A stretch of DNA of 64,000 nt, from IMG/VR virus record IMGVR_UViG_3300012973_000014, positions 22 through 64,021 of that record. The stretch is one strand, 5' to 3'. Under the pieces are notes generated by a model. The model did not search any database and was not told the DNA's origin. It saw only the letters and a program-made list of their open reading frames with translations. Each line of letters opens with the position of its first letter. Position 1 is the stretch's first letter. Shown here piece by piece: positions 4,418 through 26,979 of this stretch. A program made the position numbers and the translations under genes. Origin of the DNA: a virus.

Positions 4418-4493
4418 AGTCCAGTGGTGTAACGGTGAACACGCCGAGCAAGTCCCGGGGCCGGAGAAATGAGTTCGATTCTTGTCTGGACTA
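4418..4493 (+). tRNA. tRNA-like element (possible degenerate tRNA or tRNA-derived fragment)
   Basis: 76 nt. Perfect 7-bp acceptor AGTCCAG/CTGGACT, D-arm GTGT/ACAC with GG loop, canonical T-loop TTCGATT. The anticodon stem pairs poorly (3 of 5) and position 33 is A. Confidence 0.25.
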
Positions 4494-4695
4494 CTTATTC
4501 CATTATGGGATAAATGTGTCAATTTTTTCTGTCATAGTCGTTCCGTCGGGAGACGCAACTATTCATTCAATTTTTCATAAAGAAACACACGCGAAAGGCT
4601 CCCATAAGGAGCCTTTTCTATTTTACTGCGATACATATTTAAAATTGTAAGTTTTATTTCTTAAACAGAGTAAGTTTAGAGACATTACTCAGGTC

Positions 4696-4995
4696 TTAAC
4701 TAAAAGGCAAATCCCCTCCCTTCGGAGCCTTCTCTGTAACCTCTACCTTCCACGCTCTCACAGTAGTAAACCACTTACCCTGCCACTCACGCGAAGATAC
4801 ATCACACTGAGCTGTAACCTTATCTCCTTCACCTAACTTGCCACAATTATCTCCAGCAACATCGACTGCCACATCTTTCGGAAATTTCTCATCCTCAATA
4901 TGCAACACTACTGTCTGGCTTGACCACTGTCCGCCATCCCTTTTTGCGCCGCTTTTTACTTCCAAAACGGCTTTAACTGTTCCTTTAATTTCCAT
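4696..4995 (-). CDS. DUF3127-like protein (OB-fold, putative ssDNA-binding; Bacteroidota/phage family)
   Basis: 99 aa. 'MEIKGTVKAVLEVKSG...' resembles the DUF3127 N-terminus by memory. Confidence 0.5.
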   Translation of the reverse strand: MEIKGTVKAVLEVKSGAKRDGGQWSSQTVVLHIEDEKFPKDVAVDVAGDNCGKLGEGDKVTAQCDVSSREWQGKWFTTVRAWKVEVTEKAPKGGDLPFS

Positions 4996-5614
4996 CTTCT
5001 TTTTCTATATTAAGTTGTGTTTTATAATCATATTCAATACCTTGTTCCAAACATCGGGCCCTATAGTTACAACACTTACATTCATCCACGGTGTCGTCAG
5101 TTTCCTCAATGGCTACCCTATACCTACAGTTCAAGCAGTTCTCAGGAAGATATATCCTCGGAGGCTCCGGCGCCGAATCAGCTTTCTCATCATAATCCAG
5201 AACCTTATTCATGAACTTCTCAATGATAGCGCCCTGTTTATAATCCAATGTACCATCCTCTATAGACTGCACCAAATCATTACTGATTTTCTTCATGATG
5301 ACCGACTTAATCTCACTGCCATCAAAGCTTTTTCCATCCACTTGCTCACCACCCTCACGAGGCTTACCACCAAAATGAACCTCCAACTGAGCCTTTCTCG
5401 TCTTGATATAGTCAACTGCATCGCTGTTTCTCAATAATCCGGCCATCATAGTATTGGACTCTGCCTGATTCTTACCTGCAGCACACAGGTATCTGAACAG
5501 AATCTTCGGGTCTCCAATTCTCAAAATGTAACAATCCAAGAACACCTGTTGTATTTCCGTGAGCTCAGACGCTCTATTCTTCAACCTTTTAGGCAACACC
5601 AAATCTACTTCCAT
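4985..5614 (-). CDS. terminase-small-subunit-like HTH DNA-binding protein with C-terminal Cys cluster
   Basis: N-terminus 'LTEIQQVFLDCYI...GKNQAESNTMMAGLLRN..VDYI' matches the TerS/P27-family HTH pattern. C-terminus CxxC...CKCC. Sits in the replication module, far from TerL. Confidence 0.4.
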   Translation of the reverse strand: MEVDLVLPKRLKNRASELTEIQQVFLDCYILRIGDPKILFRYLCAAGKNQAESNTMMAGLLRNSDAVDYIKTRKAQLEVHFGGKPREGGEQVDGKSFDGSEIKSVIMKKISNDLVQSIEDGTLDYKQGAIIEKFMNKVLDYDEKADSAPEPPRIYLPENCLNCRYRVAIEETDDTVDECKCCNYRARCLEQGIEYDYKTQLNIEKEDGN

Positions 5615-6036: not shown

Positions 6037-6238
6037 GATAATTCAACCACTTGTCTTGTACAGAACACCAGAAAGTTGCACCCTCCCTTGTCCCTTCAAA
6101 CAAAAATAAACTCAAAAGCCAGTCCCTTGGTTCTTCATTATCCAACTCTCCCAAGATAGGCCGCTCGCAATTATCATATACCTTTCCGACTACTCCAGCT
6201 TCGGTTAAAAATCGCAGAAATGCGCCTTTATAGTTCAT
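6008..6238 (-). CDS. hypothetical small protein
   Basis: ORF track 6008..6436. Start placed at a downstream Met to avoid overlap with the upstream gene. Speculative. Confidence 0.25.
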   Translation of the reverse strand: MNYKGAFLRFLTEAGVVGKVYDNCERPILGELDNEEPRDWLLSLFLFEGTREGATFWCSVQDKWLNYLEEYERTEK

Positions 6239-6284
6239 GCCGTTTTTGTTTGCAAATTTACATAAATTAATCGGAAAACCCACC

Positions 6285-12350: not shown

Positions 12351-12589
12351 TTGGGTCCTTATTGGTACTTGTATACCAGTTAAGGGGAGATAATTTAAAA
12401 CGCTGATACTCAGATAGTTACAAAATGAAGATATAAATATAATGTATTGATAGTCAAGTATTTAGACCTATTTTGATACTATTTTAACAAAGTGATACTA
12501 TTTTGCAAAGTATTGATTTTTAGGTAGTTATAAAAAACTTTTGGTTTAAAAATGTATCTCAGTAGTCCAAAAATACACAACCTTGTAAA

Positions 12590-12720
12590 ATTGTGCAGTC
12601 CCTTGTAAGTAAATGTAAGGTTTTTAGTTATAATTTGTAAGGGTTGCGGGGTTATATGCTTATAAATTGCAAGGTATAAAGTATAAGTTTTTAAAAAGTG
12701 TAAGTTTTTAGGAAAATTAA
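12590..12720. repeat. about 7 copies of TGTAAG/TGCAAG motifs upstream of the first early gene
   Basis: cttgtaaaa, cttgtaagtaaatgtaagg, ttgtaaggg, ttgcaagg, gtataagttttt, gtgtaagttttt. Confidence 0.45.
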
Positions 12721-12795
12721 ATAATTGGTTTTAACTTGCACCCGTAAACGGGAGCCACTCAGGCATACCGATATAACCTATAAATATATAATACA

Positions 12796-13362
12796 ATGAA
12801 AACAAACAACACAACCCGCCCAAATGTAACCGTAAATTTTAACAACGTTGTAAGCGCGTATAAAGCAGACGCACGCACCCTAAACCGCTTATTCAGGGAC
12901 CTCAATGCTCAGGCAGAAGGATGTGAGGATACTAAAAAGGTTCTTGCAATTATCTGCAAGGGGTGCAAAAACAACAACGAGAAGAAGAGCGCATTTGTCG
13001 CGTTCTGCAAACGTTATACAAAGTATGCCAACGACAACGGCCAAATATGCAAAATGCGCAAAGTTGCAGGATATAAAGAGATACAACGCGCGTACATTAA
13101 GGAAACGTTCACTTTTGGCGATTTCCGCGGGGCATGGTTGCTGTGGCTTAAGGATGTCAACGATACATACCAAGCCAAGATTATCAGTTTTGCGACATTC
13201 TATAACACTAAGGGGTTGCCAATGACAGCCGAACACGCTCTTAATATACACCGACTACAGCAACGAGAATTGAGAAGTAAACGCGCCCTTACTAAGGATA
13301 CACGCGCGGAAATTGCAACCCTTCAGGCGCGCATTAAAGAATTGCAAGATACCTTGTTATAG
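12796..13362 (+). CDS. hypothetical protein (first rightward early gene)
   Basis: 188-aa ORF after the control region. Confidence 0.5.
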   Translation: MKTNNTTRPNVTVNFNNVVSAYKADARTLNRLFRDLNAQAEGCEDTKKVLAIICKGCKNNNEKKSAFVAFCKRYTKYANDNGQICKMRKVAGYKEIQRAYIKETFTFGDFRGAWLLWLKDVNDTYQAKIISFATFYNTKGLPMTAEHALNIHRLQQRELRSKRALTKDTRAEIATLQARIKELQDTLL

Positions 13363-14200
13363 GCTTTTTTGCTCCCCGTTATGGGGGGGCGCGTTAATGC
13401 AGGGCCCCATATGGGGCGCGGTTGCAACCCCGCGTAAAATGCAGAGCAACGCAACGTTCATTGATATAACAACCTTACAAGGTTACACGGGGGCGGGTAT
13501 CTTATACCCGTTGCACCGCGGGGGCGGGTATCTTATACCCTTAAGCCTTGCAATCTAGCAACCCGTTAAAATCTGCTGTAAGGACTGAAAACGCGCTAAA
13601 TTGCACCCGTTAATATAAGGTATTAACGCGGTTTAAATAGTCGGTTTAGCGGGGTATTTTGGCACTTTATACGCGTTGTGCAACGCGTTGCCAAATACCC
13701 GTTGCAGGTATCCAATGCCAAACTCCCAACGGGGGGGCGGTAGGGGAGAATTGCACCCGTTTTGAAACGTGCACGGGGCGCAAACGTACTAAACCCAAAC
13801 GGGGGCGGTATGGGTGAGCTATGTCCGTGTGTTTGAGGTTTTCCCGTTATCTTAGGTCTGCAATGACTGAACGGGTGAACGGATACCGAACTATTAAGGG
13901 AGGTAGGGGTACTTTGTGCCCGAACCGAACGAGGATAGTCCGACCTTGCCGAATCGAAGTAGGTGAGGCGCGAGGGTATCGTATAGGAGAGAGTGAGCGA
14001 ACGAAACACAGAGATATAGGGGAGAACTATATCCGGACCGTCTTGAACGGTTGCGATACGCACACTTGAGATAGTGTGAACGGGTTTAGTGTAGACTATA
14101 TCCTGTGTGTTTTTCATAATAATACAAAACAGCAAGGGCATACTGTGCCCGAGCGACAGGTGTACGAACGGCCTGTGGTTAGGAACTGTTCGTTTCGGGG
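13363..14200. other. GC-rich structured noncoding region with G-tract repeats and perfect palindromes (candidate ncRNA or regulatory region)
   Basis: No credible ORF. GGGGGCGGGTATCTTATACCC appears twice. GGGGGCGGTA appears three times. TTGCACCCGT appears three times (12737, 13597, 13751). Palindromes GCCCCATATGGGGC and ACGCGTTGTGCAACGCGT. Confidence 0.5.
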
Positions 14201-14488
14201 GTGGGGTACGAGAGTACTCTGCCCTTTCTAATTTATAAGAGTATGATAAACTTAAGAGAATTACGCAAGAGAGAGCCTGAGCGGTTCTTTATCTTGTGGC
14301 GGCAGCAGGACCCGATAGGATTCGGCTTAGCCAGAATACGTGCGAGTTACGAGGAAGTAACGAGTGCGAAGAAAAACGGAAGTGATGACTATGCCCGTAT
14401 GAGAGCGAATCATATTGCCCTTGTACGGAAGTGGACTGACCTGTGCGGTTTGGAGGCCAAGCAGGTACGAAAATATTATTATGTATAA
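14201..14488 (+). CDS. hypothetical protein
   Basis: 95-aa ORF, start uncertain. Confidence 0.3.
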   Translation: MGYESTLPFLIYKSMINLRELRKREPERFFILWRQQDPIGFGLARIRASYEEVTSAKKNGSDDYARMRANHIALVRKWTDLCGLEAKQVRKYYYV

Positions 14489-14544
14489 CCAGCCCGAATG
14501 CGGACGGGGGCGCACCTGAACGGGTGTATTGGGTCCGAACGATT

Positions 14545-14706
14545 ATGAGAAAAGAGATGCTACTTCTTGTAGCTGTGTTGTGGTCTGGCGAGGTATGCGA
14601 GGCTGCATTGTGTCCGAACGAGAATGTTGAGGATGCGAAGAACGCTGTTATTGTGAACTACTGCTTACCTTGTGGAGCAGTTAAAGAGTGGAGGATTGAA
14701 AAATGA
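14545..14706 (+). CDS. small secreted or membrane Cys-rich peptide (putative)
   Basis: In-frame Met of ORF 14443..14706. 'MRKEMLLLVAVLWSG' hydrophobic N-terminus, 4 Cys. Confidence 0.3.
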   Translation: MRKEMLLLVAVLWSGEVCEAALCPNENVEDAKNAVIVNYCLPCGAVKEWRIEK

Positions 14707-14789
14707 GACGCAGAGAAGTATTGGAGAACATTGCCCTAACTGTGATTTTGTTGGGCGGTATGTACTTAGTATGTTTGGCTGGGTACTTG

Positions 14790-14813
14790 TTTAACTAAAA
14801 ACGATGTATTATG
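14790..14813 (+). promoter_or_regulatory. class-1 conserved leader cassette TTAACtAAAAacgatGTATTATG
   Basis: One of about 20 copies of TTAACCAAwAA-N(4-9)-GTATTATG, placed immediately 5' of a small ORF start. Confidence 0.55.
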
Positions 14814-15020
14814 AGTGAATTTAAGACCCATGCCACCTTGTGCTTGAGTAATTTTGGTGGCGTTGCTATTGAACTATCTGATACGGGGGAGGCCGTCAGA
14901 TACAAATGGTATGATAATAAGCCGAGCCGTTGGTGCAAGGTGTATTACAACCTTAAGGGCGAACCGTATTTCAAGATGGCGGGCAAAAGGTACTACCTGA
15001 GCGAATTTATGCGGGTGTGA
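14811..15020 (+). CDS. hypothetical early protein
   Basis: 69 aa. Preceded by the class-1 cassette. Confidence 0.5.
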   Translation: MSEFKTHATLCLSNFGGVAIELSDTGEAVRYKWYDNKPSRWCKVYYNLKGEPYFKMAGKRYYLSEFMRV

Positions 15021-15084
15021 AGCCGAACCGGGCACGACTTGGGAGAGTTGTGTCTGGACGAATTAACTAAAACTGTATTGTATT

Positions 15085-15321
15085 ATGGAAATGATGAACA
15101 AATGGGTATACTTCTGTTTCAATTACCCGTACGACTTTATTGAGCAGATTTGGGGTGGAGAGTATATTTGCGACCACCTAAAGGGTAAATTTCAGATGTA
15201 CTATGACCTTGTAGGCAGTACCGGCGTGATGAACAAGTTTTATGCGAACTTGGACAAGACTAATCAAAGAAGGCTGCTGCAGTGGGTTATAGATAACTAT
15301 AACGATGAGCAGAAGTTGTAA
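15085..15321 (+). CDS. hypothetical early protein
   Basis: 78 aa. Class-1 cassette at 15062-15087. Confidence 0.5.
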   Translation: MEMMNKWVYFCFNYPYDFIEQIWGGEYICDHLKGKFQMYYDLVGSTGVMNKFYANLDKTNQRRLLQWVIDNYNDEQKL

Positions 15322-15384
15322 AGCAAGGAGGGTGCGTAGTGATACGTGCCCTTTTTCTATTTAACCAAAACGATAAGAAAAGTT

Positions 15385-15612
15385 ATGAAGACAATCAAAA
15401 TTGCTCCGAACCTTGATGAGATTGAGGTAGGGGCGAACTATGTTTCTACAGAGTGGAACGGTGGTATCAGGTACGAGGCTGAGGGATTGGACCGGTACAA
15501 GGAGGACTATCTGAAGCAGTGTTTCAGTACTGCGATAGCTATGAGTGGCCGACCATGGCAGCTTGAGGCTATATTGAACGACCATTTAGGATTGAAGGGA
15601 GTGGTGAAGTAG
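15385..15612 (+). CDS. hypothetical early protein
   Basis: Start placed at the Met after the cassette (TTAAC at 15361). ORF track 15346..15612. Confidence 0.45.
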   Translation: MKTIKIAPNLDEIEVGANYVSTEWNGGIRYEAEGLDRYKEDYLKQCFSTAIAMSGRPWQLEAILNDHLGLKGVVK

Positions 15613-15673
15613 AACGAGGAGCCGAGGCAGGGATGTCTTGGCTCTTGCAATTATTAACCAAAACGATTGTATT

Positions 15674-15937
15674 ATGCTAAACAGAAATGTAATTGAGGGC
15701 GTGGAAGGACTACGCGAACTAATTATGAGAGAGATTAGAGAACATTTGGCGGACGAATGTGAGGGCGGGCCGGTGGATATTGATATAAAGTTTAATTTGG
15801 ACGGTAACGCAGAATATTTGCGTAGTATTCAATTGGACGAGGATGGTGAAAATGTATTGGTAGTAACCGATACGGGAGTAAACGAGTTGTTCTTATATTC
15901 TCTTGATGAGATGATTAAAATTGTGGATGCGCTGTAG
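15674..15937 (+). CDS. hypothetical acidic early protein
   Basis: Start at the Met after the cassette (TTAAC at 15654). Acidic composition. Confidence 0.45.
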   Translation: MLNRNVIEGVEGLRELIMREIREHLADECEGGPVDIDIKFNLDGNAEYLRSIQLDEDGENVLVVTDTGVNELFLYSLDEMIKIVDAL

Positions 15938-15943
15938 TACTGG

Positions 15944-15971
15944 ACCCTACTTGGTGCGAATCAGGTAGGGT
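15944..15971 (+). terminator. conserved hairpin ACCCTAC-N14-GTAGGGT (copy 1)
   Basis: Identical 28-nt element repeated at 16282-16309. Followed by 'TAC..TTAACC'. Confidence 0.5.
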
Positions 15972-15999
15972 TACTATTATTAACCAAAAACGAACTATT

Positions 16000-16275
16000 A
16001 TGAAAGAGATTGAATTAGGTTCCGATGGGGGAACTATTGCTCTTATGGAATGGATTAGGGCGAACAATTACCCAGCCTTAGATACAACATTTTGTCGGTC
16101 AGCAAGCGGATACTATACTCTTATAGTATCTTCTTACGAACCGACCGAATTTGATTTAGACCTTTCCGATGGGGAGTGGTTTGAATGGAAGGGTATGAAG
16201 AGGCACTTTTGTGGTCTTCCACGAATGTGGGTGATGTATATTGACGGGTATTGGTATTACGCAACGCCTTATTGA
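16000..16275 (+). CDS. hypothetical early protein
   Basis: 91 aa. Cassette TTAAC at 15980. Confidence 0.5.
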   Translation: MKEIELGSDGGTIALMEWIRANNYPALDTTFCRSASGYYTLIVSSYEPTEFDLDLSDGEWFEWKGMKRHFCGLPRMWVMYIDGYWYYATPY

Positions 16276-16281
16276 TGAATG

Positions 16282-16309
16282 ACCCTACTTGGTGCGAATC
16301 AGGTAGGGT
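16282..16309 (+). terminator. conserved hairpin ACCCTAC-N14-GTAGGGT (copy 2)
   Basis: Identical to 15944-15971. Confidence 0.5.
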
Positions 16310-16315
16310 TACGAA

Positions 16316-16382
16316 TTTTTAACCAGCGGCGAACGGCTGTGCTGCGCTCCTACGGGAGTTTAATGGGCCGTGTTGTATTATG
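16316..16382 (+). promoter_or_regulatory. class-2 conserved leader (TTTTTAACCAGC...GCGC...TAATGGGCCG...TATTATG)
   Basis: One of 4 copies (16316, 20066, 26780, 28131) of a roughly 65-nt element with three conserved blocks. Confidence 0.5.
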
Positions 16383-17129
16383 ATGGAATATGTTAGACCT
16401 ACAGAGATGATGAGACTTACTGTTATCAATGGTAATGTTTGCGAAGGAACTATCTGCGGAGTTATCTTGACTATCGTGGAGGGTGATATTGTAATGGACG
16501 GTTACCGATTTAAGCACAATGGCAAAGGGATTATCTTGCCGGCGGATCAGGAGTTCTATTTTGATGAGAATACATTCAAGTTAGGGCAACCTATCATTCC
16601 TGACTGCTCTTGGAACGGCCTGTACAGCCTTGTTGGTTGGGACCGTCCGACCTTGTGGTACTACAAGAATGGTAAGGCAGAGCCATGGAAGTGGAAGAAT
16701 GAGCTTATTTCTTGGGAGATATTGCCTAACTATAACGCTAAGTTGTTGAACGGCTTTATCCCGGATGAGTTATTCGGCGAAGAGAAGGATGTCTATAGTT
16801 GGCACGACCTTATCGTACATAAGGATAACGGGGATATTGAGTTTAAGAAGGCTCCGCTATCTGTATTGCGATTGAATGATAATCAGCAGAAGCTGTTTGA
16901 ACAATTTAAGGCGTTACTTAAAGAGATGACCGATGCTGACATGTTGATTGTTGAAGATAGGGACCGCTGCGAACTGGCGGTATTGAACTGCAGTGAATAC
17001 AGAGTAGAGTTCGAGTGCGGCAACGATTTCGAACCGGCATTTCCGACAGATATGCAGGTTGTTATCCGTAATCATACCTATTATTACGGGGATGGTAGTG
17101 AGCGAATGAACATTTACAAGAAGAAGTAG
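16380..17129 (+). CDS. hypothetical protein
   Basis: 249 aa. Behind the class-2 leader. Confidence 0.55.
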   Translation: MMEYVRPTEMMRLTVINGNVCEGTICGVILTIVEGDIVMDGYRFKHNGKGIILPADQEFYFDENTFKLGQPIIPDCSWNGLYSLVGWDRPTLWYYKNGKAEPWKWKNELISWEILPNYNAKLLNGFIPDELFGEEKDVYSWHDLIVHKDNGDIEFKKAPLSVLRLNDNQQKLFEQFKALLKEMTDADMLIVEDRDRCELAVLNCSEYRVEFECGNDFEPAFPTDMQVVIRNHTYYYGDGSERMNIYKKK

Positions 17130-17193
17130 GTAAACGAACGGGGGCTGGTGCAGAGATGTGCCGGCCCTTACTATTAACCAATAAAATGATATT

Positions 17194-18093
17194 ATGAATT
17201 ACGAAGAGATGTACGAACGAGTTAAAGCTGAACTACAGACTGAGTACGACCTGTGCTATGTAGATTACCGGGACTCTTTTAGTGTCAAGATGGTAGCTGA
17301 ATGTCTTGAGCGAAAGAGTCTTCAACCTTTATGGGAGGAAGACTGCTACTGGGAACATCGGTCTGATGCAAGTTTTGATATTTTGGACAAGATAGGTCTG
17401 AAATTATATAAGGATTACGAGTGGCTTGAGTTTAAACAAGAGTCGTATTTGTACAATGACCTGCGTTACTTGATTCAGGAACGTGATGTAAGCGAACCAG
17501 AGAAAGACTGCTGGATGCAAACGAGGGTGGATGGCAGGGTGTTACTATTCAGTAATTATGACTGCTGGGTTCCGCCGTATGATGCCGGTGGGTTGGATGC
17601 TTTTCATGACTACCTTGAGACCGCTATGAGAGTACTATGCTTGAATCCTAAGAAAGTTAAGGAGGTTTGCAGTGAGTGGACGACTTGCAGAGGTAGGTGG
17701 CCGAATTACCATTGGAGAGATGGTAAAGAGGTGGTGAGTTATGAGGGATTTAGCAAGATATTGCGAGAGTCTTGTTCTTACGGCTTACTATGCTTTGTCG
17801 GCAAGATGAATATGAGCGAGTTATGGGATAAGATTGATAAGCAGGATGAGTTAGTTATCCCTAAGGGAACCACTGTAACTATGTTCAACCATTGGAATGG
17901 TGGTGGCAGCATGGATGATTGTAAAACTCTCAGAGATGTATCTTTGGGAGAAATGAACCGCAGAGCGCAAAAATGTCTTGTGGGAACCGAGTATGACTTC
18001 GTTGAGCTTGAGGTAGATGAGAGAGGTTGCTGTAGAGGATATAGTACCGGTGAGGTGTATGGTGGTAGCTTAAGCGATGATGACTTGTTTTAG
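17194..18093 (+). CDS. hypothetical protein
   Basis: 299 aa. Cassette TTAAC at 17174. Confidence 0.55.
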   Translation: MNYEEMYERVKAELQTEYDLCYVDYRDSFSVKMVAECLERKSLQPLWEEDCYWEHRSDASFDILDKIGLKLYKDYEWLEFKQESYLYNDLRYLIQERDVSEPEKDCWMQTRVDGRVLLFSNYDCWVPPYDAGGLDAFHDYLETAMRVLCLNPKKVKEVCSEWTTCRGRWPNYHWRDGKEVVSYEGFSKILRESCSYGLLCFVGKMNMSELWDKIDKQDELVIPKGTTVTMFNHWNGGGSMDDCKTLRDVSLGEMNRRAQKCLVGTEYDFVELEVDERGCCRGYSTGEVYGGSLSDDDLF

Positions 18094-18156
18094 TAAAACG
18101 CGGCTGTAATAGGGATATTGCAGTCGTGGCGAGTTATTAACCAAAATTGATGTATT

Positions 18157-18417
18157 ATGAAAATCAGAGAAATCAAAGCAAAGGACGGTGCAAGAGAGTG
18201 CCGTATTTTCGTGAGCAGTTGTGTAAAGAACGAGATTGATGATGGCCGTATAGTGAAGGGCTATTGGTATATTGTCAAAGGCGGACAGGTCGGACGATTT
18301 GTGCGAGAATATATCAAAAGCGGTAAGCAGCTGGATAACCTTGAGGATTATGATGTGTTCAATATCAACGGGAGCTGTGATACCAAGGAGTATTTTGCGG
18401 AATTGCTTGCTATGTAA
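18157..18417 (+). CDS. hypothetical early protein
   Basis: 86 aa. Cassette at 18137. Confidence 0.5.
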   Translation: MKIREIKAKDGARECRIFVSSCVKNEIDDGRIVKGYWYIVKGGQVGRFVREYIKSGKQLDNLEDYDVFNINGSCDTKEYFAELLAM

Positions 18418-18424
18418 CGAACGG

Positions 18425-18450
18425 GACCCCGGCAGAGATGTACGGGGTTT
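18425..18450 (+). terminator. intrinsic terminator hairpin with conserved loop GCAGAGATGT
   Basis: gaCCCCGgcagagatgtaCGGGGtttt. Confidence 0.55.
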
Positions 18451-18477
18451 TGCAATGTTTAACTAAAAGAATGTATT

Positions 18478-18735
18478 ATGACACACGAAGACCAACAGAG
18501 GTTTATTGAGCTTGCTAAAAAAGCGAGGTATAATGAGGCTATGGATGAGCTGACCACTTTTGTATGTAATCATGTCGGAGAGGGTTTTAGCGGGCCGGAC
18601 GCCGAGCGAATGGCGGACGACTTCGCACTTCTTGCGGCTTGGATATATGACCGGCTGAACGGCGAGAATCCAAGGGCAAGGAGGAGTGTAACGAACAAGA
18701 TTAGGAAGGCGCTGGGGTACATACCTATGCAGTAG
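18478..18735 (+). CDS. hypothetical early protein
   Basis: 85 aa. Cassette at 18459. Confidence 0.5.
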   Translation: MTHEDQQRFIELAKKARYNEAMDELTTFVCNHVGEGFSGPDAERMADDFALLAAWIYDRLNGENPRARRSVTNKIRKALGYIPMQ

Positions 18736-18799
18736 TGAACAAGGAGGATGCGGGGAGGCCGGCATCCTCTTGCTATTAACCAACTAAATTTTATGTATT

Positions 18800-19120
18800 A
18801 TGGAAAAAGAATGGACAGAAGCAGGTATTAAGTATGTATTTGAAACTATCAAGAAGTGGATTAAGACAAGAACCTTCAAGACTCTAAAGAATGGAACCAT
18901 AGGTGGCTCTATGACGATTAAACAAATGGAGAATCTTCTTGGCTTGCCTTACTCGAGTTCCGGTAGACATGCGGGATTATGGATATGTAACGACGTTGTA
19001 TACTTGGACCTTGAGTGTAAGTATCATATCGCTGGGTTCTGTATGGATGTACGAGGATGCGTCTATGCTGAATGTTTTGATAAAGATGAAAACGAGTTGT
19101 TTATACCTATAAATAAGTAA
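18800..19120 (+). CDS. hypothetical early protein
   Basis: 106 aa. Cassette upstream. Confidence 0.5.
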   Translation: MEKEWTEAGIKYVFETIKKWIKTRTFKTLKNGTIGGSMTIKQMENLLGLPYSSSGRHAGLWICNDVVYLDLECKYHIAGFCMDVRGCVYAECFDKDENELFIPINK

Positions 19121-19123
19121 GTT

Positions 19124-19318
19124 ATGACTATCAAGGAATTACGAAAAATGTTCTGGACTGAAGTAGCCACAGATGAGATGCGTAAGGAGTATCGCAGTAG
19201 GAAAACGCAGAATGACTATTCTACCGATGTACGATGTGCTTGGGTGGATTTTACTGACCATGCAGTAAAGAGCGGGTGGATAACACAGAAGCAGTGTGAT
19301 GAACGAGCCACCTTGTAA
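19124..19318 (+). CDS. hypothetical early protein
   Basis: 64 aa, 3-nt spacing after the previous gene. Confidence 0.4.
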   Translation: MTIKELRKMFWTEVATDEMRKEYRSRKTQNDYSTDVRCAWVDFTDHAVKSGWITQKQCDERATL

Positions 19319-19382
19319 CTATGCAGCGACCTCGCAGGGATGTGGGGTTGTTGGCGAGTATTAACTAATTAAAATATGTATT

Positions 19383-19604
19383 ATGAGACGACAAGTAGAG
19401 AAAATCCCTTCTTGGGCTATAAATGCAATTATTAATAATGATTGTACAGGGTTGGAATATAGTGAGATAGATTTAATACAGAGATGGTTTGAGGATACGG
19501 GCTATGACTATGTTTGTACTCCGGATTCGGACCCGTATTTTACTAATTACCCTGCATTTGGACTACCTTGTGATGTTTATGACTGCATCTGTGTAACCTT
19601 GTAG
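19383..19604 (+). CDS. hypothetical early protein (Cys-rich C-terminus)
   Basis: 73 aa. Cassette at 19361. Confidence 0.45.
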   Translation: MRRQVEKIPSWAINAIINNDCTGLEYSEIDLIQRWFEDTGYDYVCTPDSDPYFTNYPAFGLPCDVYDCICVTL

Positions 19605-19661
19605 AGCTGACTCAGCCCGAGTGGTATTGGGTTGGGTTACGAGTATTAACCAATAAAAATT

Positions 19662-20036
19662 ATGAAAATGGAACTAACATTAAAAGAGATGGCTCAGATT
19701 GAGAGAGCTAGAGTAGAGGCAGCTAAGAAAGAAGAGGAGAGAATCCGTGAAGAACGACTTAGGCTAAAGACGGAGGTTGTAGATGTGTTATTCAATGAGA
19801 TTAAGGATTTTATCTCTACTGTGAGAAAAAGTGATAATCCTAACAATCCATACCTTTTTATACCTATAAAAGGTTATCCTCTTGATGGGCTATGGGGGTA
19901 TACAATATACCCCGAGACAACGCTTGACTATTTCATTGTACATTATAGAGATAGTAGTTGTTCTTACGCCTTCGACTATGAGAAACGCATGAATAAAAGA
20001 GAGTTTGCGGAGAAGGTGCTAAGCTTGTATTTGTAG
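19662..20036 (+). CDS. hypothetical early protein
   Basis: 124 aa. Cassette upstream. Confidence 0.5.
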   Translation: MKMELTLKEMAQIERARVEAAKKEEERIREERLRLKTEVVDVLFNEIKDFISTVRKSDNPNNPYLFIPIKGYPLDGLWGYTIYPETTLDYFIVHYRDSSCSYAFDYEKRMNKREFAEKVLSLYL

Positions 20037-20134
20037 AACCAATCGGGCGTCAAACAGGCGCTCACTATTTTTAACCAGCACCGGACAGGGAGCGTGCGCA
20101 TCTTGTGGAAGATGTTAGAGGCCTGTTGAGTATT

Positions 20135-20791
20135 ATGAAAAAAGAGAGCGAGAAGCTATTGAACGAGATTTATGTAATGACCGAGGACCAGAAGATTAAG
20201 GACAAGGTGTTGCAAATTTTAAGGATTGAAGCGCCTCAACCGAACGGTAAGTTTGATTACTTCAAGTATGTAAGCAAGGAACTTGCGAGACCGATTATGA
20301 CTGGTGTATTCCATGATAATGGTTTTAAGGTTGCGAGCGATTGCCATATTATTGTAGCTATTAAGGACTACTACGATATAAGCGAATTGGAAGGCAAGGT
20401 CGTAGGCAAGGACGGCGCATTCATTGAGGGTAATTATCCAAAATGGAGGACTGTTATTCCTGACTTTACCTCTAAGATGCATGATTACAGGACTGAAACG
20501 GTTAAGATTGATTTTGATAAATGGGCCGAGTTCATGAAGGCATATAAGGCTGATAAGAAACTAAATTTAGAAAAGCGTTGGGTTAAGATTGGAGAACAGT
20601 ATTATAGTGTGGATTTGTTCAACTTGCTTACTATCGCCATGAGGAGGATAGGGACGGATGAGATTACTAATTCTTGGAGTCAGTATGGTGGTACTGCCGG
20701 CGTATGCAACGGGAGCGACGGTAGTATTGCACTCTTGATGCCAGCGATGAGAGCGTATGACATAGATGATGACCAGTTTTACGTATTCTAG
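20135..20791 (+). CDS. hypothetical protein
   Basis: Start at the Met after the class-2 leader 'GTATTATG'. ORF track 20105..20791. Confidence 0.5.
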   Translation: MKKESEKLLNEIYVMTEDQKIKDKVLQILRIEAPQPNGKFDYFKYVSKELARPIMTGVFHDNGFKVASDCHIIVAIKDYYDISELEGKVVGKDGAFIEGNYPKWRTVIPDFTSKMHDYRTETVKIDFDKWAEFMKAYKADKKLNLEKRWVKIGEQYYSVDLFNLLTIAMRRIGTDEITNSWSQYGGTAGVCNGSDGSIALLMPAMRAYDIDDDQFYVF

Positions 20792-20857
20792 CAGTATGAG
20801 GGGGCGTTATCCGAGAGGGTGGCGTCTCTGCTATGATTAACTAAAAAAAGAAGTATT

Positions 20858-21382
20858 ATGAAAAAATTTGAAGACCTAACAAGTAGTGAGTTGTGGAAGT
20901 TAAGAGATGAGATTACATTAAACTCTATCTATGTAGCTGACTATGAGAACTCTTTCCGTTTTAATGCAAAATGTATCTGTGCCTTTTTCGATGGTTATGT
21001 AGATTACCTCTTTGAACTAGCTGAGGAGGATAAATTCCCAGTTGACGATGAGTTTGCTGTATTTGATAAATACGACACAGAAGATAATCTTTATAACTGG
21101 TTTTGCTGCTATGACGATTTGTCTTGGGTTGAGAGCGATATCAAGGTATTCCGCTTCTCCCAGACTTACAAAAAGACCGTTACATGGCGCGAGTATTACG
21201 ATATTGAGGCTGAATCATTGGAGGAGGCTTTAGAAAAGGTTGAGGAGTGTGATGGCGACTTGGATGACTGCGAAGATGCTGAGTTTGTTGAGGCCGAACA
21301 GGAGGAGGAGAATGATGTCGATGCATATCAGAGACGAGACATTGATACCATTTATGACCCGGACGGAGAGGAGGTGGAGTAG
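20858..21382 (+). CDS. highly acidic protein, candidate DNA-mimic/anti-restriction
   Basis: 174 aa. C-terminal 70 aa very D/E-rich ('EECDGDLDDCEDAEFVEAEQEEENDVD'). Confidence 0.5.
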   Translation: MKKFEDLTSSELWKLRDEITLNSIYVADYENSFRFNAKCICAFFDGYVDYLFELAEEDKFPVDDEFAVFDKYDTEDNLYNWFCCYDDLSWVESDIKVFRFSQTYKKTVTWREYYDIEAESLEEALEKVEECDGDLDDCEDAEFVEAEQEEENDVDAYQRRDIDTIYDPDGEEVE

Positions 21383-21446
21383 AGCAAAGCAGGACCGAGC
21401 AGTGATGTTTGGTTCTGTGCGATGTTTAACCAAAAAGATGTGTATT

Positions 21447-21704
21447 ATGATAAAAAGAACTGAAATTAAGAAAGCTGTATCTGACTTGGAAGAGATGCTC
21501 TATTTCTATGTAAAAGAACAACTTGAAAAGAACGGTGATATTGATATCTCCGTACAACTTGTTAGTAATGATTTTGATTGTTACGAAGCACAAAGACTCT
21601 TCTTGAGTGAAATCGGCGAACCTATGGTAGCCACTGATATGGAGCACCTTGAGTTTTGGGGTCTTAACCTTGAGGATATGCTGGTGATTTTTGAGAATAT
21701 ATGA
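21447..21704 (+). CDS. hypothetical acidic early protein
   Basis: Start at the Met after the cassette (TTAAC at about 21432). Inside ORF 21240..21704. Confidence 0.45.
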   Translation: MIKRTEIKKAVSDLEEMLYFYVKEQLEKNGDIDISVQLVSNDFDCYEAQRLFLSEIGEPMVATDMEHLEFWGLNLEDMLVIFENI

Positions 21705-21705
21705 T

Positions 21706-21734
21706 AATTAACCCTTACTTGAGCGATTGAGTAA
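21706..21734 (+). terminator. hairpin ACCCTTACT-N10-AGTAAGGGT, same family as 15944/16282
   Basis: Followed by TACGAATTATTAACC. Confidence 0.5.
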
Positions 21735-21769
21735 GGGTTACGAATTATTAACCAAAAAAACGAATTATT

Positions 21770-22126
21770 ATGAGTATTAAAGAAAAAATTGAACAGCAGT
21801 TTATTGCAGATTTTGATTTGGATATCTTCCTGAAATTTGTAGAGGACCAATTAAGGAAGCATGGCAATGCCGAGATAGGATTGGAATTTGATAGGTCGAA
21901 TAAGTCATTAAAATCAGCTCCTTTCCAAACAGAGGGGTATTTTACTTCTAAGAAGTGGCCTACTTTTGAAAGAGCGCGCAAAAATTATTACTGGAACTCT
22001 AATTGCCAAATACCGCATCAGTTAGTCCCGTATGTCAAAAAGCAGTTAACGGAGCAAGGACTTAAAACTTCGTGCAAAGGGGCGTGCGGTTACGATACCT
22101 ATGACATTCTTGTTGTGACTATGTAG
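21770..22126 (+). CDS. hypothetical early protein
   Basis: 118 aa. Cassette upstream. Confidence 0.5.
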   Translation: MSIKEKIEQQFIADFDLDIFLKFVEDQLRKHGNAEIGLEFDRSNKSLKSAPFQTEGYFTSKKWPTFERARKNYYWNSNCQIPHQLVPYVKKQLTEQGLKTSCKGACGYDTYDILVVTM

Positions 22127-22224
22127 CGAACTGGCAGGGATGATGCGAATTATCTCTGCTTACCAATTATTAACCAACCCGAACGCGTGAGGGTGCTCCG
22201 AGAGGAGTTATGGCGCGTATAATT

Positions 22225-22530
22225 ATGAAAAATAGTCAAGATTTGTACGCTATGTACAATGTTTTGGTTTCTGATGCCAAGGAGAGTATTAGGGACATCT
22301 TGAGTAAGCAACCTAAACAGAGGGTTATAGTGGATATGTGGGTTGTTGCGGATTATCACGAAGGAGCTGAAAGGGAAGCTGTTACCGGTATTCAACTAAG
22401 GGATGGTATGATAGAGCTTATCCTTCCCGACGGCGACATTGTGAGAAGCAAAAACGTATTGAACAGCGAATGGCTCTACATCTTAGAATGCGTTGAGTAT
22501 GAACTAGCTGAGAAGGAGGGAAAGTTATGA
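22225..22530 (+). CDS. hypothetical early protein
   Basis: Start after 'TATAATTATG'. ORF track 22210..22530. Confidence 0.45.
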   Translation: MKNSQDLYAMYNVLVSDAKESIRDILSKQPKQRVIVDMWVVADYHEGAEREAVTGIQLRDGMIELILPDGDIVRSKNVLNSEWLYILECVEYELAEKEGKL

Positions 22531-22853
22531 GCAAAGTAACATGTCTCTGCTATGGGCAGGAGCGGACTTTCAAGAGCAGGAAGGCTGCTATAGACTTTTA
22601 CGCTGAGGCGATGTTTGCAACAGAGGGAGCTGAATCGGAGAGGTATAGAACCATCTTGAGTAAACTGTACCGGGGCGATAAGGTGTGTAGTGATGAGGAA
22701 ATCAGTTGGGCTGGATTAGCTGCGGCTGGAGAGGAGTTTTACCAGCAAGTAGAGGAACGGGGAGTTAAGTTTCGTGATGATGAGCACGAGCAGGAAGCTC
22801 TGTTTGACTTTATCGAGCAGGTAAAGATGTACGGAAGAGCGGAGGTGAGGTAG
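22527..22853 (+). CDS. hypothetical early protein
   Basis: ATGA overlap with the upstream gene. 108 aa. Confidence 0.45.
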   Translation: MSKVTCLCYGQERTFKSRKAAIDFYAEAMFATEGAESERYRTILSKLYRGDKVCSDEEISWAGLAAAGEEFYQQVEERGVKFRDDEHEQEALFDFIEQVKMYGRAEVR

Positions 22854-22921
22854 CGTATGCGGAGTCGAGTAGAGATATTCGGCTCTGTACTATGTTTAAC
22901 CAATTAAAAAATGAATGTATT

Positions 22922-23251
22922 ATGAAGAAATGTGAATCATGGAGCGATGTAGAGCAAATTATAGCTCCTTTTGTCAAGAGTTATTTTAGCATGGACGACG
23001 AGGTTGTACCGACATTCAAGGATAGTCTTGCACGGGTAGGAAATTCCTTCACTGGATATGACAGGGTAGTCTCGTTTCAGACTAAAGAGGGTGTTATCGG
23101 CGAGGTTAGGAAACCGGTAACGAATGGCTATGGAGAGGCTTATAGAGATAGATGTAAAGATGGGTTTGTGCTGGGACTTCTTGGTAAGAACAATAAATGG
23201 ATATATGGCCCTGTAGAGCACATTAAGAGTACGATTGAGCTTGCTAAGTAG
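22922..23251 (+). CDS. hypothetical early protein
   Basis: Start at the Met after the cassette. ORF track 22892..23251. Confidence 0.45.
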   Translation: MKKCESWSDVEQIIAPFVKSYFSMDDEVVPTFKDSLARVGNSFTGYDRVVSFQTKEGVIGEVRKPVTNGYGEAYRDRCKDGFVLGLLGKNNKWIYGPVEHIKSTIELAK

Positions 23252-23314
23252 TATTACTCCCTTGAACTCTGACAGGTTCTTGGGGGACGAATAACCAATA
23301 AAAAATTAAGTATT

Positions 23315-23605
23315 ATGATAAAATATGTATGGGTAGATGACCGAATTACTGGTAAACATACCTATGAAGTTGATATTGAGGATTTGCAGGACCTTTTAGA
23401 TTCTCTTAATGCCGTCATATATTATAAAAAGGTTTTTTATGAGAGGCTGTCTGATGTTCCACTAGAGGTTGAGCGTGAGCAAATCTGTAGCTATGGGCTT
23501 CCTACTAATCTTTATATCACAATGGCTCCTACTATAACAATAGTACCAAAGGGTACTACTATAAGGAAATGGTACATTTTTGAGGAGTTTGTGTTTCCTA
23601 GATAA
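23315..23605 (+). CDS. hypothetical early protein
   Basis: 96 aa. Cassette variant ATAACCAAT. Confidence 0.45.
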   Translation: MIKYVWVDDRITGKHTYEVDIEDLQDLLDSLNAVIYYKKVFYERLSDVPLEVEREQICSYGLPTNLYITMAPTITIVPKGTTIRKWYIFEEFVFPR

Positions 23606-23714
23606 GATATAGCCCGCCTGAGCTTTATCAGGCTTGTTTGTTTGTTTGTTTTCATAGCCCCGTACCGCTGGGAAGTGTTGCGGGGTACAATTATTAACCA
23701 TTAAAAGAAGTATT

Positions 23715-24011
23715 ATGGAAAGACCTAAATTTAAAGAAGAGCGGATTATGTTTTATACTAAAGCTGAGTTGAATAGAGAACTCTTGTGGTGGGAATGTCG
23801 ACTCTCTAATCTTAAATCTGGGATAAAAGATTATCGAGACCAGAAAGACTGGGAAGTTAATCAGGCTATAATGATGGCTAAGCATGCCATACAAAACACA
23901 CGGGCTTTGTTAAACTTAAATTTAGATGAGTATTATTTGCAAGGTTCAAAGGTGGTAGCTATTACCACTATAGCAGAGAAGCGTGATGACTTAAAGTATT
24001 ACTTCACATGA
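23715..24011 (+). CDS. hypothetical early protein
   Basis: 98 aa. Cassette upstream. Confidence 0.5.
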   Translation: MERPKFKEERIMFYTKAELNRELLWWECRLSNLKSGIKDYRDQKDWEVNQAIMMAKHAIQNTRALLNLNLDEYYLQGSKVVAITTIAEKRDDLKYYFT

Positions 24012-24054
24012 AGTGGGGTAATGCACTGATTGTTAACTAATTAAAAAAAGTATT

Positions 24055-24333
24055 ATGAATAGAAAACCATGCGTGTTTATAAAGGAGACACAAGAAAACC
24101 CTACAGCTGCGGTGTTGGTTGTACGGTTTGATGATTTAGACAAGATAGGTCATACTAGATTTGAAATAGATGGTAAGTTACACATTCTTACCCATCCTAC
24201 TACTGCCGGTATAGAGTCTATCCTACTCAGGAATATCTTGGCTATTAAAGGATATTCTATTATAGATGAGAGAGATTTTGTGTGGGAAGATGGAGCCATA
24301 GATGTTGAATTTGTAACTGATATGCCTTATTGA
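24055..24333 (+). CDS. hypothetical early protein
   Basis: 92 aa. Cassette upstream. Confidence 0.5.
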   Translation: MNRKPCVFIKETQENPTAAVLVVRFDDLDKIGHTRFEIDGKLHILTHPTTAGIESILLRNILAIKGYSIIDERDFVWEDGAIDVEFVTDMPY

Positions 24334-24349
24334 TAAAGGAGGACGAGTA

Positions 24350-24700
24350 ATGGATAAACAATTTTTAGACTTAAAGACGCGGATAGAAAACATGTCCACT
24401 GAGAAGTTCGTGCAGTGGATGAACGAGGTGTTCTTGAATCGTAATGACCACGGGTATTACTGCAAAATTCACGAGGTAGATGATGATAAATATTGGTCGG
24501 ACTATATGCGACCTATAGGGGCTGAGATTGCCATTGGCATCGCGAATGGTGTCGAATGGGGCCGTTTTAATCGCGGAGAGAGATATGTTATGTATGTAGA
24601 ATATGATGATAATTTCATCACTTTTGACACCAAGGAGCAGTTCTTTAACGAGATTTGGCCCTTGGATGATATTATTTATGAAATGAATTGTAGGAGGTAA
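24350..24700 (+). CDS. hypothetical protein
   Basis: 116 aa. Shine-Dalgarno-like AAGGAGGA upstream instead of the cassette. Confidence 0.5.
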   Translation: MDKQFLDLKTRIENMSTEKFVQWMNEVFLNRNDHGYYCKIHEVDDDKYWSDYMRPIGAEIAIGIANGVEWGRFNRGERYVMYVEYDDNFITFDTKEQFFNEIWPLDDIIYEMNCRR

Positions 24701-24779
24701 TATGAACAGAGCCGGATGCATACAGTTTACCAAGGGGTATCAGGATGATATCTTCTTGGATATAGGTAGTTAGGTCCAG

Positions 24780-25190
24780 ATGAAATCATTTAAGCTGGGC
24801 CTTGCTTTTGATATCCTGAATAACTTGCCTCTGCAGGCATATAACTTTGATTACGGGTATCATACAGACTTGTCTCCTTGCGCCCTATTCTTCAATCCTA
24901 TGATGCTGTACCAAGCCATTCAAACAGTAATGACGAGTGTGCAGATACGTTCAGGTGTTGGGGAAGACGGCGTTCTGGTCCGTAACAAGAAGGAACTTAC
25001 CAAGGCGATAATTGCCGGACACAAGGTGATATACACCGTCAAGCCTAAGTGTAAATCTCTGGCAGAACAGGCTGAGTTTTATATGGAATTATGCGAGTAT
25101 ACGGCGGTGATTGAACGGTATATATACAAGGTGGCAAGGAAGAGGATGTTCAAGATGTTTAAAGTTATGATGAGTGGGTCGGAGCAGTGA
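24780..25190 (+). CDS. hypothetical protein
   Basis: 136-aa ORF. Confidence 0.45.
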   Translation: MKSFKLGLAFDILNNLPLQAYNFDYGYHTDLSPCALFFNPMMLYQAIQTVMTSVQIRSGVGEDGVLVRNKKELTKAIIAGHKVIYTVKPKCKSLAEQAEFYMELCEYTAVIERYIYKVARKRMFKMFKVMMSGSEQ

Positions 25191-25229
25191 TGTTCCTTCC
25201 CTTCCAATTTTTAACTAAAATGAAGTATT

Positions 25230-25424
25230 ATGGAAACGAAAGAATGCAAGCAATGCCGAATAACACGCCCTTTGAGCGACTTTTGTATAAGGTTTGGTGT
25301 TATATCCAACACATGTAAACATTGTGGAAAAGCGTTAAGGAGGGAACGAAAGGAGTTTATTAAATCTATTATGCCAGCTGTGCTAAAATTAAGGGAGGAC
25401 TTAAGAAATGCCATCAGGAGATAG
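25230..25424 (+). CDS. small zinc-ribbon protein (paralog of 27213..27527 N-terminus)
   Basis: 'METKECKQC...CKHC'. Cassette upstream. Confidence 0.45.
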   Translation: METKECKQCRITRPLSDFCIRFGVISNTCKHCGKALRRERKEFIKSIMPAVLKLREDLRNAIRR

Positions 25425-26475: not shown

Positions 26476-26478
26476 ATT

Positions 26479-26739
26479 ATGAAACCAGTAAACGAAAAAT
26501 CACTATTACATCACTTGTTTGAGCAGATGGATAAATTAGACAAGGGTGAAATTACTACCGAGCGAGCTGTTGCTCATGCTAAATTAGCAAATGAAGCCAC
26601 GAAATTATTCAAGCAGGAAATGGACCGAGCAAGGTTGTTTATGGATTTGCAAGACCATGCAGCCAAGACTGGTCAAATGATTGGGCTTAGAGAGTTAGCG
26701 TCAAAAGGATTTGATGATACGACCAAGGTGATTGGGTAG
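26479..26739 (+). CDS. hypothetical protein
   Basis: 86-aa ORF. Confidence 0.45.
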   Translation: MKPVNEKSLLHHLFEQMDKLDKGEITTERAVAHAKLANEATKLFKQEMDRARLFMDLQDHAAKTGQMIGLRELASKGFDDTTKVIG

Positions 26740-26835
26740 AACAAAGAGACTGGGACCTAATCGTCCCTTTCTCTGCCATTTTTAACCAGCACGGAGCCGG
26801 TGTAGTGCGCCTAAATAGGTAATGGCCGGATGATT

Positions 26836-26979
26836 TATGAGACAACAATTTGTGCAGTGCAGGTATCGCTACCAAGCATTAAAGGAATGCCCTTGGAGTA
26901 GTAGGGTTGCAAAAGTGAACGGTGGCTATATGTGCTTTGAATCAATTAGTGATTATTATACATGGAGGAATCAGAAATG
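26836..26979 (+). CDS. hypothetical small protein (47 aa)
   Basis: Read by hand behind the class-2 leader at 26780. Below the ORF-track size cutoff. Confidence 0.3.

Follow-up and report, generated by a model that had tools for sequence, protein, structure and literature searches.

Type-P1 twister ribozymes (Rfam RF03160) are self-cleaving RNAs that were reportedly described by Roth and co-workers in 2014. Early transcripts of phages may undergo intercistronic processing, as at the RNase III sites of T7, and in lambda and HK022 RNA elements of some tens of nucleotides (nt), nutR and putR, respectively, are located just after the first gene of the early operon. The biological role of bacterial and phage twisters has been described as largely unknown, the processing of polycistronic transcripts being one idea for the bacterial ones (PMC6765202). 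Theta ribozymes, which are similar to the hepatitis delta virus ribozyme, have been proposed to act at the 3' trailers of tRNAs in gut phages (PMC10879173). Here we analyse a 64,000-nt stretch of viral DNA (positions 22 to 64,021 of the IMG/VR record IMGVR_UViG_3300012973_000014), further referred to as the window, and a GC-rich noncoding island in it at 13363-14200. The island lies directly 3' of gene 1 (12796-13362, + strand, 188 amino acids (aa)), the first rightward early gene; the noncoding stretch reaches the ATG at 14243, slightly past the end assigned to it in a first-pass annotation of the same DNA. We consider it probable that the island is transcribed into a highly structured, non-coding RNA segment that belongs to the rightward early transcript and is headed by a ribozyme.

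A permissive Rfam scan of the island yielded a match to RF03160 that spans the full model (positions 1-68) with 40.6 bits and an E-value of 2.7e-07. In the scan of the whole window this match had E = 1.9e-05, and only one other match, a tRNA at 4418-4493, had E < 0.01. The 62-nt element occupies 13391-13452 on the + strand. Its pair map consists of helices P1 (13391-13394/13449-13452), P2 (13398-13401/13440-13443), P3 (13404-13408/13413-13417) and P4 (13418-13420/13431-13433), and of two pseudoknots that link the P4 loop to the internal loops, T1 (G13402-C13429, G13403-C13428) and T2 (U13423-A13448, G13424-C13447, C13425-G13446). All helices and both pseudoknots can form, and every pair is Watson-Crick. 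P1, P2 and P4 follow in the order typical of the P1 type, with the chain entering and leaving via P1. The locus shares with known type-P1 twisters the succession P1-UAA-P2-(P3)-P4-UAAA-P2'-GA-T2'-P1', both pseudoknots and the conserved nucleotides, namely U-A-A at the cut, GC in P2, CGGU and AA in the P4 loop, the UAAA linker and GA before T2'. Departures from the consensus are confined to the covarying pseudoknot positions and one additional A in the UAAA linker. The former are compensatory: three pseudoknot pairs differ by two-sided changes, a C-G to G-C exchange in T1 (GC/GC to GG/CC) and the replacement of CCC/GGG by UGC/GCA in T2. The intergenic position within an operon near phage genes is likewise shared (PMC6765202).

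Comparison with other phages supports the fold. In the ortholog from contig L003, whose flanking gene is 82% identical to that of the window, P3 is absent, T1 is consensus-like, and T2 has a third version, CCA/UGG, which is still complementary. IMG/VR was scanned with an exact pattern that fixed the invariant core and left the pseudoknot positions free. At least 120 viral stretches (L011-L130) carry twisters sharing P2 (UGCA) and the core, and 103 distinct cores were found among the matches listed. In these 103 phage twisters, T1 is paired in 99.5% of cells, T2 in 99.4%, and all elements together in 92.9%. The covariation score equals 0.442, versus 0.111 for shuffled alignments and at most 0.103 when the partners are slid. 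The covarying elements are P1, the outer pair of P4, T1 and T2, with two to five pair types per varying pseudoknot position. The unusual versions of T1 (GG/CC) and T2 (UGC/GCA) seen in the window occur jointly in L089. On structural grounds, as read from these sequences, 13391-13452 is assigned as a bona fide twister fold, and self-cleavage is predicted from family membership to occur at U13395/A13396, 33 nt past the stop codon of gene 1. The type is already known, whereas this copy is new. At E up to 10, no further ribozymes or known RNAs were found by Rfam in the island and its relatives.

A GC-rich hairpin, GCUCCCC-GUUAUG-GGGGGGC, is located at 13371-13390 (+ strand; pair probability 0.87) and abuts P1 of the twister. 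It is retained in L003 and in L001, a contig that is 90% related to the window. Cleavage would leave it 5 nt away from the 3' end newly formed on the gene-1 mRNA. A comparable hairpin is present 5' of most of the 114 phage twisters examined: the mean minimum free energy of the 46 nt ending at the cut site is -12.7, versus -7.8 for shuffled sequences and -5.4 downstream. The median spacing of such twisters is 36 nt past the upstream open reading frame (ORF) and 55 nt before the next one; in the window, the core pattern begins 32 nt past the gene-1 stop. As the cut of a twister falls at the 5' edge of the ribozyme itself, the simplest interpretation is that cleavage generates the 3' end of the RNA upstream, with the hairpin remaining there as a cap. 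Such a role would parallel the proposals made for theta ribozymes at tRNA 3' trailers (PMC10879173) and for bacterial twisters in polycistronic transcripts (PMC6765202). Several viral contigs bear two twisters 0.6-2.9 kb apart, and some of these pairs flank a gene.

The following sequence of events can be proposed for the 5' part of the island. Rightward early transcription, as suggested by gene orientation and GC skew, would proceed through gene 1 into the island. The 62-nt twister, whose fold is shown by covariation, would cut itself at the predicted site, as other members of the family do. The gene-1 mRNA would thereby receive a 2',3'-cyclic phosphate end 5 nt past the GC-rich hairpin, which would form and protect this 3' end; the layout with a hairpin and a twister is general in the phage copies. 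In T7, RNase III likewise cuts a polycistronic early transcript between genes and leaves a 3' hairpin on the upstream message. In the window, however, the predicted cut involves no host enzyme, the RNA cleaving itself, and the ends would be 2',3'-cyclic phosphate and 5'-OH. The theta ribozymes of gut Caudoviricetes are also small, cut at their own 5' edge and set the 3' end of the upstream RNA (PMC10879173). They, too, are found in gut phages of Bacteroidota, and some twisters of the same subfamily as that of the window also reside in tRNA arrays (L089, L019). Theta ribozymes differ in fold and in chemistry class, and the RNA upstream of the cut in the window is an mRNA rather than a tRNA. At this locus the setting of the twister is clear: it follows the stop codon of gene 1, and a hairpin lies immediately 5' of it. 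The recurrence of the hairpin and the twister between genes or in tRNA arrays of more than 100 viral contigs points to a general, testable role in forming ribozyme-made 3' ends and insulating cistrons.

As to the tRNA arrays, in L089 (array 4558-5095) the twister is located between tRNAs at 4868-4919, and in L019 (2095-6332) it occupies 2610-2661, ten nt past a tRNA. L019 also contains a sub-threshold match to Y RNA-like (YrlA) RNA at 6155-6267.

The ~790 nt downstream of the twister hold conserved + strand RNA structure, as shown computationally. The fold of the + strand has an energy of -338 kcal/mol (z -4.5) versus -269 kcal/mol for the - strand. This part is 95% identical to its counterpart in L001, whereas gene 1 and the upstream spacer are 84% and 59% identical, respectively. 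Near the 5' end there are two exact 21-nt copies of GGGGGCGGGUAUCUUAUACCC (13489-13509 and 13520-13540, + strand), each ending in a GGGUAU-CUU-AUACCC hairpin; the corresponding tandem GGGGGCGGGTATCTTATACCC had been reported in the first-pass annotation and is indeed exact at 13489 and 13520. The cores of these hairpins are invariant in L001 and L003; the only copy covered in L133 is closed by a weaker pair and has CUUU as its loop. For a competing CCGC/GCGG stem (13516-13519/13524-13527), we read the alignment as showing compensation of C-G by U-A in L003.

The central part, 13571-13876 (+ strand), is a multi-arm domain defined by RNAalifold and pair counts in the window, L001 and L133. Its arms are 13594-13651 (with a hairpin at 13605-13632), 13652-13700, 13703-13755, 13771-13830 and 13834-13854. 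Arm 13652-13700 is a hairpin of about 20 base pairs (bp) with the ACGCGUU/AACGCGU inverted repeat ACGCGTTG at its tip. The G-rich repeats of this region are 3' strands of successive imperfect hairpins of 50-60 nt, the 25-nt repeats starting with GGGCGGUAGGGG forming those of arms 13703-13755 and 13771-13830; similarly, RNA helices carry CCCGUU on one strand and AACGGG on the other. Out of 120 predicted pairs in 13509-13880, 94.7% are kept in the window, L001 and L133, versus 35-47% in slid controls, and two-sided changes number 13 versus 5.4 in shuffles. Further downstream follow an imperfect hairpin at 13890-13939 (+ strand; pair probabilities 0.93-0.98), which has a GGGUAC-UUU-GUGCCC tip and is followed by CGAACCGAACG, and a branched domain at 14006-14108 (+ strand), closed by a 13-bp helix (14006-14019/14096-14108; pair probability 0.98) and ending at a run of five U. 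Conservation of the block 13884-13910 reaches 89% in L134, a distant relative. The branched domain has a shorter homolog at the same place in L132 and L134, with CUACG/CGUAG and ACACG/CGUGU as the closing helices. Among 33 pairs in 14096-14248, 96.2% are kept in comparison with L132-L134, and eight are altered on both sides.

Region 13453-14243 matched no Rfam family and showed no similarity within 1 Mb of twister-bearing viral loci. Like GOLLD and ROOL (Rfam), it comprises several hundred nucleotides of conserved multi-stem RNA that is carried by a phage and has no known function. It differs from them in having no sequence or structure match, in its confinement to one narrow phage lineage, and in that it possibly functions as a leader and not as a free RNA. 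We regard this unclassified ~790-nt RNA as a candidate new regulatory RNA outside the known families. One of the proposals of the first-pass annotation, a structured noncoding RNA, is therefore both upheld and made specific, since one of its palindromes is P3 of a twister and the rest of the island keeps + strand helices via compensatory changes. Two of the checks it had suggested were informative here: the Rfam/Infernal search revealed the full-length twister, which scores below the family cutoff, and left the remainder without a match, while covariation was seen in the twister pseudoknots (103 cores) and, as kept pairs with two-sided changes, in the remainder.

Several other explanations of parts of the downstream RNA were discarded. 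A ToxI-like type III antitoxin RNA would form a tandem array of closely similar ~36-nt repeats in front of a ToxN-like endoribonuclease gene, whereas only two exact 21-nt copies with a 31-nt period are present; the downstream 81-aa protein, considered as a ToxN-like partner, has no PADLOC, Pfam or PHROG match. The CUUU loop of L133 argues against the GGGUAU-CUU-AUACCC hairpins being mimics of anticodon arms. Pairing of the gene-1 start (12814-12831) with 13481-13498 was rejected, given that the arm on the gene side is not conserved in L001. Finally, the island does not derive from copies of the intergenic cassettes described below: the nhmmer profile built from 14 cassettes has matches on the + strand in 14775-27578 and none in 13363-14243.

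The 3'-terminal part of the island contains an invariant block, GUUUUUCAUAAUA (UUUUUCAUAAUA), at 14108-14120 (+ strand), which is identical in the window, L001, L133, L132 and L134, while its flanks drop to ~60-70% identity. Positions 14114-14118 are complementary to 14242-14246, the start-codon region of the following gene, and this pairing is predicted in all four sequences. The block is also the exact complement of UAUUAUGAAAAA, the consensus start region of the small-gene array, and its reverse complement matches nine + strand gene-start regions with at most two mismatches. Energies of its duplexes with array start regions range from -6.4 to -11.6 kcal/mol versus -2.9 for random 18-mers. 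Beyond the block, a terminator-like hairpin of 12 bp, capped by a GNRA loop (GAGA), is located at 14198-14225 (+ strand; pair probability 0.99), and the conserved UUUCUAAUUU comes after it. It is 100% paired in four sequences, with three pairs changed on both sides and the loop being GAGA or GGGA. The terminator consensus scan flagged this hairpin; its tail UUUCUAAUUU is interrupted, and the ATG is 17 nt further.

This ATG opens a gene for a basic all-helical protein of 81 aa (14243-14488, + strand), which always directly follows the island. Homologs with 87%, 74% and 64% identity are encoded in L132-L134, each with at least 520 nt free of gene calls upstream; those of L132 and L134 (87% and 64%) are 83 aa long, and island blocks persist in both contigs. 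No Pfam, PHROG or PADLOC match was found for the 81-aa protein. Its AlphaFold model is a helical bundle with a predicted local distance difference test score of 87, and its best PDB matches are to ribosomal protein bS20, at a non-significant level (E >= 0.36). The island and the 81-aa gene are found together, and neither is present in the related contig L002 or in Parabacteroides phage PF672P1, where the syntenic region is a 1.5-kb AT-rich gap with neither twister nor island. Given this joint occurrence and absence, the island and the gene form one accessory module. After cleavage, the downstream RNA would start with a 5'-OH and the compact ribozyme fold, and its remaining ~790 nt, as far as the ATG at 14243, would form imperfect hairpins and branched domains. 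The most likely role of such a leader, travelling with the 81-aa gene, is a cis effect on stability and translation; UUUUUCAUAAUA can pair with the start-codon region, the GNRA-capped terminator-like hairpin stands just before the ATG, and both may have a regulatory effect.

Further features are located downstream of the island. Motifs ACGGGGGCGC and UGAACGGG of the island type extend to ~14630. A 26-nt repeat (81% identical; 14522-14547 and 14601-14626) contains GUCCGAACGA--AUG; one copy immediately precedes the start codon of a 53-aa ORF, whereas the other lies inside it. Nearly every small gene of the array (15021-25232) is preceded by a cassette of ~63 nt, e.g. 15613-15673, 17130-17193 and 18418-18477, which is made up of a GC-rich hairpin whose loop is often of the GNRA type (GAGA, GGGA or GUGA), TTRCKA, TATTAACC, an A-rich run and TGTATT-ATG. 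At least 16 strong cassette matches are found on the + strand in 15021-25232, and some of them are terminator-like. Some cassettes have an additional hairpin after TTAACC (16276-16379, 20037-20134, 22127-22224). The cassette may serve as a promoter, a processing site or a terminator.

A number of observations weigh against a ribozyme-headed structured transcript or limit it. The twister scores 40.6 bits and misses the RF03160 gathering cutoff of 67.2, which is a curated score cutoff and not a structural one. The five further phage copies scored (L001, L003, L019, L089 and L125) are under the cutoff as well (34.7-55.3 bits). The covariance model cannot credit covariation in pseudoknots, and the shortfall is due to the compensatory changes in both of them; with all six scored copies under the cutoff, routine annotation probably overlooks many such twisters. 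Helices of the downstream RNA have moderate support, as the remainder is covered by three to five related sequences, two of them nearly identical, and the structures were predicted and scored on the same alignments. The closing helix of the central domain, 13571-13586/13855-13876, is tentative and falls in a poorly aligned part of L133. The higher identity of the island to L001 could in part reflect mosaic recombination rather than selection. Read on the - strand, 14108-14126 (GUAUUAUUAUGAAAAAC) matches the consensus translation start perfectly and is kept in five lineages, with an unconserved ORF behind it. Hence either the invariant block masks start codons in cis and possibly in trans, or its complement could be the conserved translation start of a non-conserved antisense ORF. 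Lastly, the module is dispensable in related phages, and the gene array can hence be expressed without it.

Four other accounts of the island were considered. That it encodes a protein, be it the 172-aa antisense ORF (13623-14141, - strand) or a frameshift-corrected ORF, is extremely improbable. Substitutions between the window and L001 in the 172-aa frame include nine synonymous and five non-synonymous ones, with 8 of the 14 at codon position 3, and a conserved consensus start region precedes the second ATG of this ORF. The 9:5 bias, however, is by our own estimate non-significant after six-frame testing (p ~0.06 before correction). Two 1-nt deletions in L001 break the frame after ~103 codons, in L132 a stop occurs at codon 7 from this ATG, and the translations in L133 and L134 are unrelated. 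No homolog outside this phage was found among 5.8 billion proteins. The codon score of -0.445 bits per codon is like that of spurious antisense ORFs, real genes having 0.17 +/- 0.11. The ORF, which does not belong to the element, was thus judged spurious and antisense rather than low-complexity, as the first-pass annotation had put it. On the + strand, the largest ORF (13821-14069) is disrupted in L001 by a frameshift at codon 4, and the matching 520-670 nt of L132, L133 and L134 have no gene calls except a 47-residue fragment at the contig end in L133. The earlier statement that the island has no plausible ORF is confirmed by the lack of a frame kept among relatives, the lack of homologs and the poor codon score; a frameshift-corrected ORF across the island, which the same annotation had named as an observation that would speak against its proposals, is not supported. 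By these comparisons, the island is non-coding in at least five related contigs. It is, further, highly improbable that the island acts as DNA, that is, as an operator or iteron cluster binding proteins or as a replication origin. Enrichment in short motifs (of the 13 copies of CCCGTT in the window, 7 fall in the island, as do 4 of 4 copies of GGGGCGG) and the location ~2.5 kb from the primase gene and near the turn of GC skew are compatible with such a role. But the spacing of repeats is irregular (31, 68, 95 and 113 nt), members of the 25-nt repeat family, at spacings of 68, 95 and 113 nt, are merely 68-72% alike, and CCCGUU and AACGGG face each other in RNA helices that depend on G-U pairs and have GNRA loops. 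What is preserved among relatives is the pairing and not the sequence, one of the palindromes is a ribozyme stem, and the AT-rich repeats at 12400-12790 are a better candidate for an origin or promoter. Together with the far better folding of the + strand, these observations disfavor the dense transcription-factor binding region suggested earlier. The suggestion of G-quadruplexes is, as it stood, not supported either: no canonical motif (four tracts of at least three G, loops of 1-7 nt) exists in the island on either strand, and only relaxed patterns occur at 13383-13416 (the hairpin and the twister) and 13489-13528 (with a 27-nt middle loop). The G-runs are arms of helices or of the ribozyme.

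The remaining two accounts concern RNA. The island might be a processive antitermination element, like put of HK022 or nutR of lambda, allowing read-through of the terminator-like hairpins that precede genes. It shares with nutR and putR the placement just past the first early gene, as is generally known for lambdoid phages, and at least 16 downstream cassettes open with GNRA-capped hairpins and U-rich tails, some of them terminator-like. Yet at ~790 nt the island far exceeds the known put and nut elements, no boxA- or boxB-like motif was recognised in it, and L002 has the same downstream cassettes and lacks the island, which makes this role very unlikely. Alternatively, the ~830-nt RNA freed by the twister (~13396-14225) could be a stand-alone trans-acting RNA that dampens translation of the array genes or decoys host defence; we rate this as unlikely. 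It would, with the same low likelihood, constitute a new class of large structured phage RNA with a multi-arm domain (13571-13876), an anti-start-codon block and a 5'-OH end defined by the twister. Such an RNA would throttle in trans the translation of at least 16 array genes sharing UAUUAUGAAAAA, or serve as a decoy. Consistent with this, the block forms more favourable duplexes with several of the array genes (-9 to -11.6 kcal/mol) than with the gene that follows it (-6.8), a terminator-like hairpin closes the island, the RNA is built as a series of long imperfect hairpins, and the module is accessory, GC-atypical and located in the early region. On the other hand, hairpins like the terminal one precede every array gene, the duplexes are short and AU-rich, and Rfam scans revealed no similarity to known regulatory or decoy RNAs. 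This possibility overlaps the cis-acting leader proposed above and is compatible with it.

The window belongs to a siphovirus-type phage with genes for the tape-measure protein, major capsid protein, primase, helicase and methylase. The closest relatives of the capsid protein are those of Parabacteroides phages PF672P1/P2 (53% identity), and the phage is a gut phage, a Bacteroidales-type siphophage. A blastn search against INPHARED gave no matches to it, protein-based and DNA-pattern scans of IMG/VR gave no close relatives, and the metagenome scan returned its own contig and one chance match. Samples carrying the phage include, for example, ERZ27246275 and SRR6059974. The leftward replication genes and the rightward small-gene array diverge at an AT-rich region at ~11.7-12.8 kb.

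The GC content of the island (13363-14200) is 0.508 versus 0.417 for the whole window, which places it at the 99.7th percentile among 838-nt windows. This value, the repeats and the motif enrichment indicate that the island, as delimited in the first-pass annotation, is not a chance feature. Its contrast with AT-rich surroundings applies to the left of gene 1, where only 12400-12795 is truly AT-rich (GC 0.278), and not to the genes flanking the island, with GC of 0.44. Of the repeats listed earlier, TTGCACCCGT indeed has three copies (12736, 13601 and 13751), and runs of seven G are present at 13383 and 13731. Another repeat said to occur three times was counted differently, GGGGGCGGTA being present only twice (13733 and 13801) and GGGGGCGG, four times. 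The many CGAACGG motifs reduce to a single exact copy in the island (14165) and five copies of GAACGG. The two perfect palindromes are represented by GCCCCATATGGGGC (13404-13417), which is P3 of the twister, and by ACGCGTTGTGCAACGCGT (13671-13688), which is an 8-nt inverted repeat with a 2-nt spacer. The copy of TTGCACCCGT at 12736 was considered as a shared regulatory site and rejected: L001 and L002 read TTTGCCCGCAAAGCGGG there, in a compensated hairpin, and the match is incidental.

Several further features of the window were observed. The very AT-rich region 12400-12795 (GC 0.28) is divergent and lies between the leftward and rightward blocks, with a change in the sign of GC skew nearby, at ~11.7-11.9 kb. 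It contains short direct repeats, namely two copies of TGATACTATTTT, two of the TAAGTTTTT type and several of TTGTAAG, and is likely an early promoter and/or origin region. In L001 and L002, CCCGCAAAGCGGG takes the place of the gene-1 leader hairpin at 12741-12754 (CCCGUAAACGGG), with the structure kept and the sequence altered. The tRNA at 4418-4493 (+ strand) scores 42.2 bits in Rfam, above the cutoff, and was not reported by ARAGORN. Within the rightward block, a serine recombinase is encoded at 28722-29498 (+ strand; Resolvase N-terminal domain, E 1.7e-24), possibly with a function in integration or inversion.

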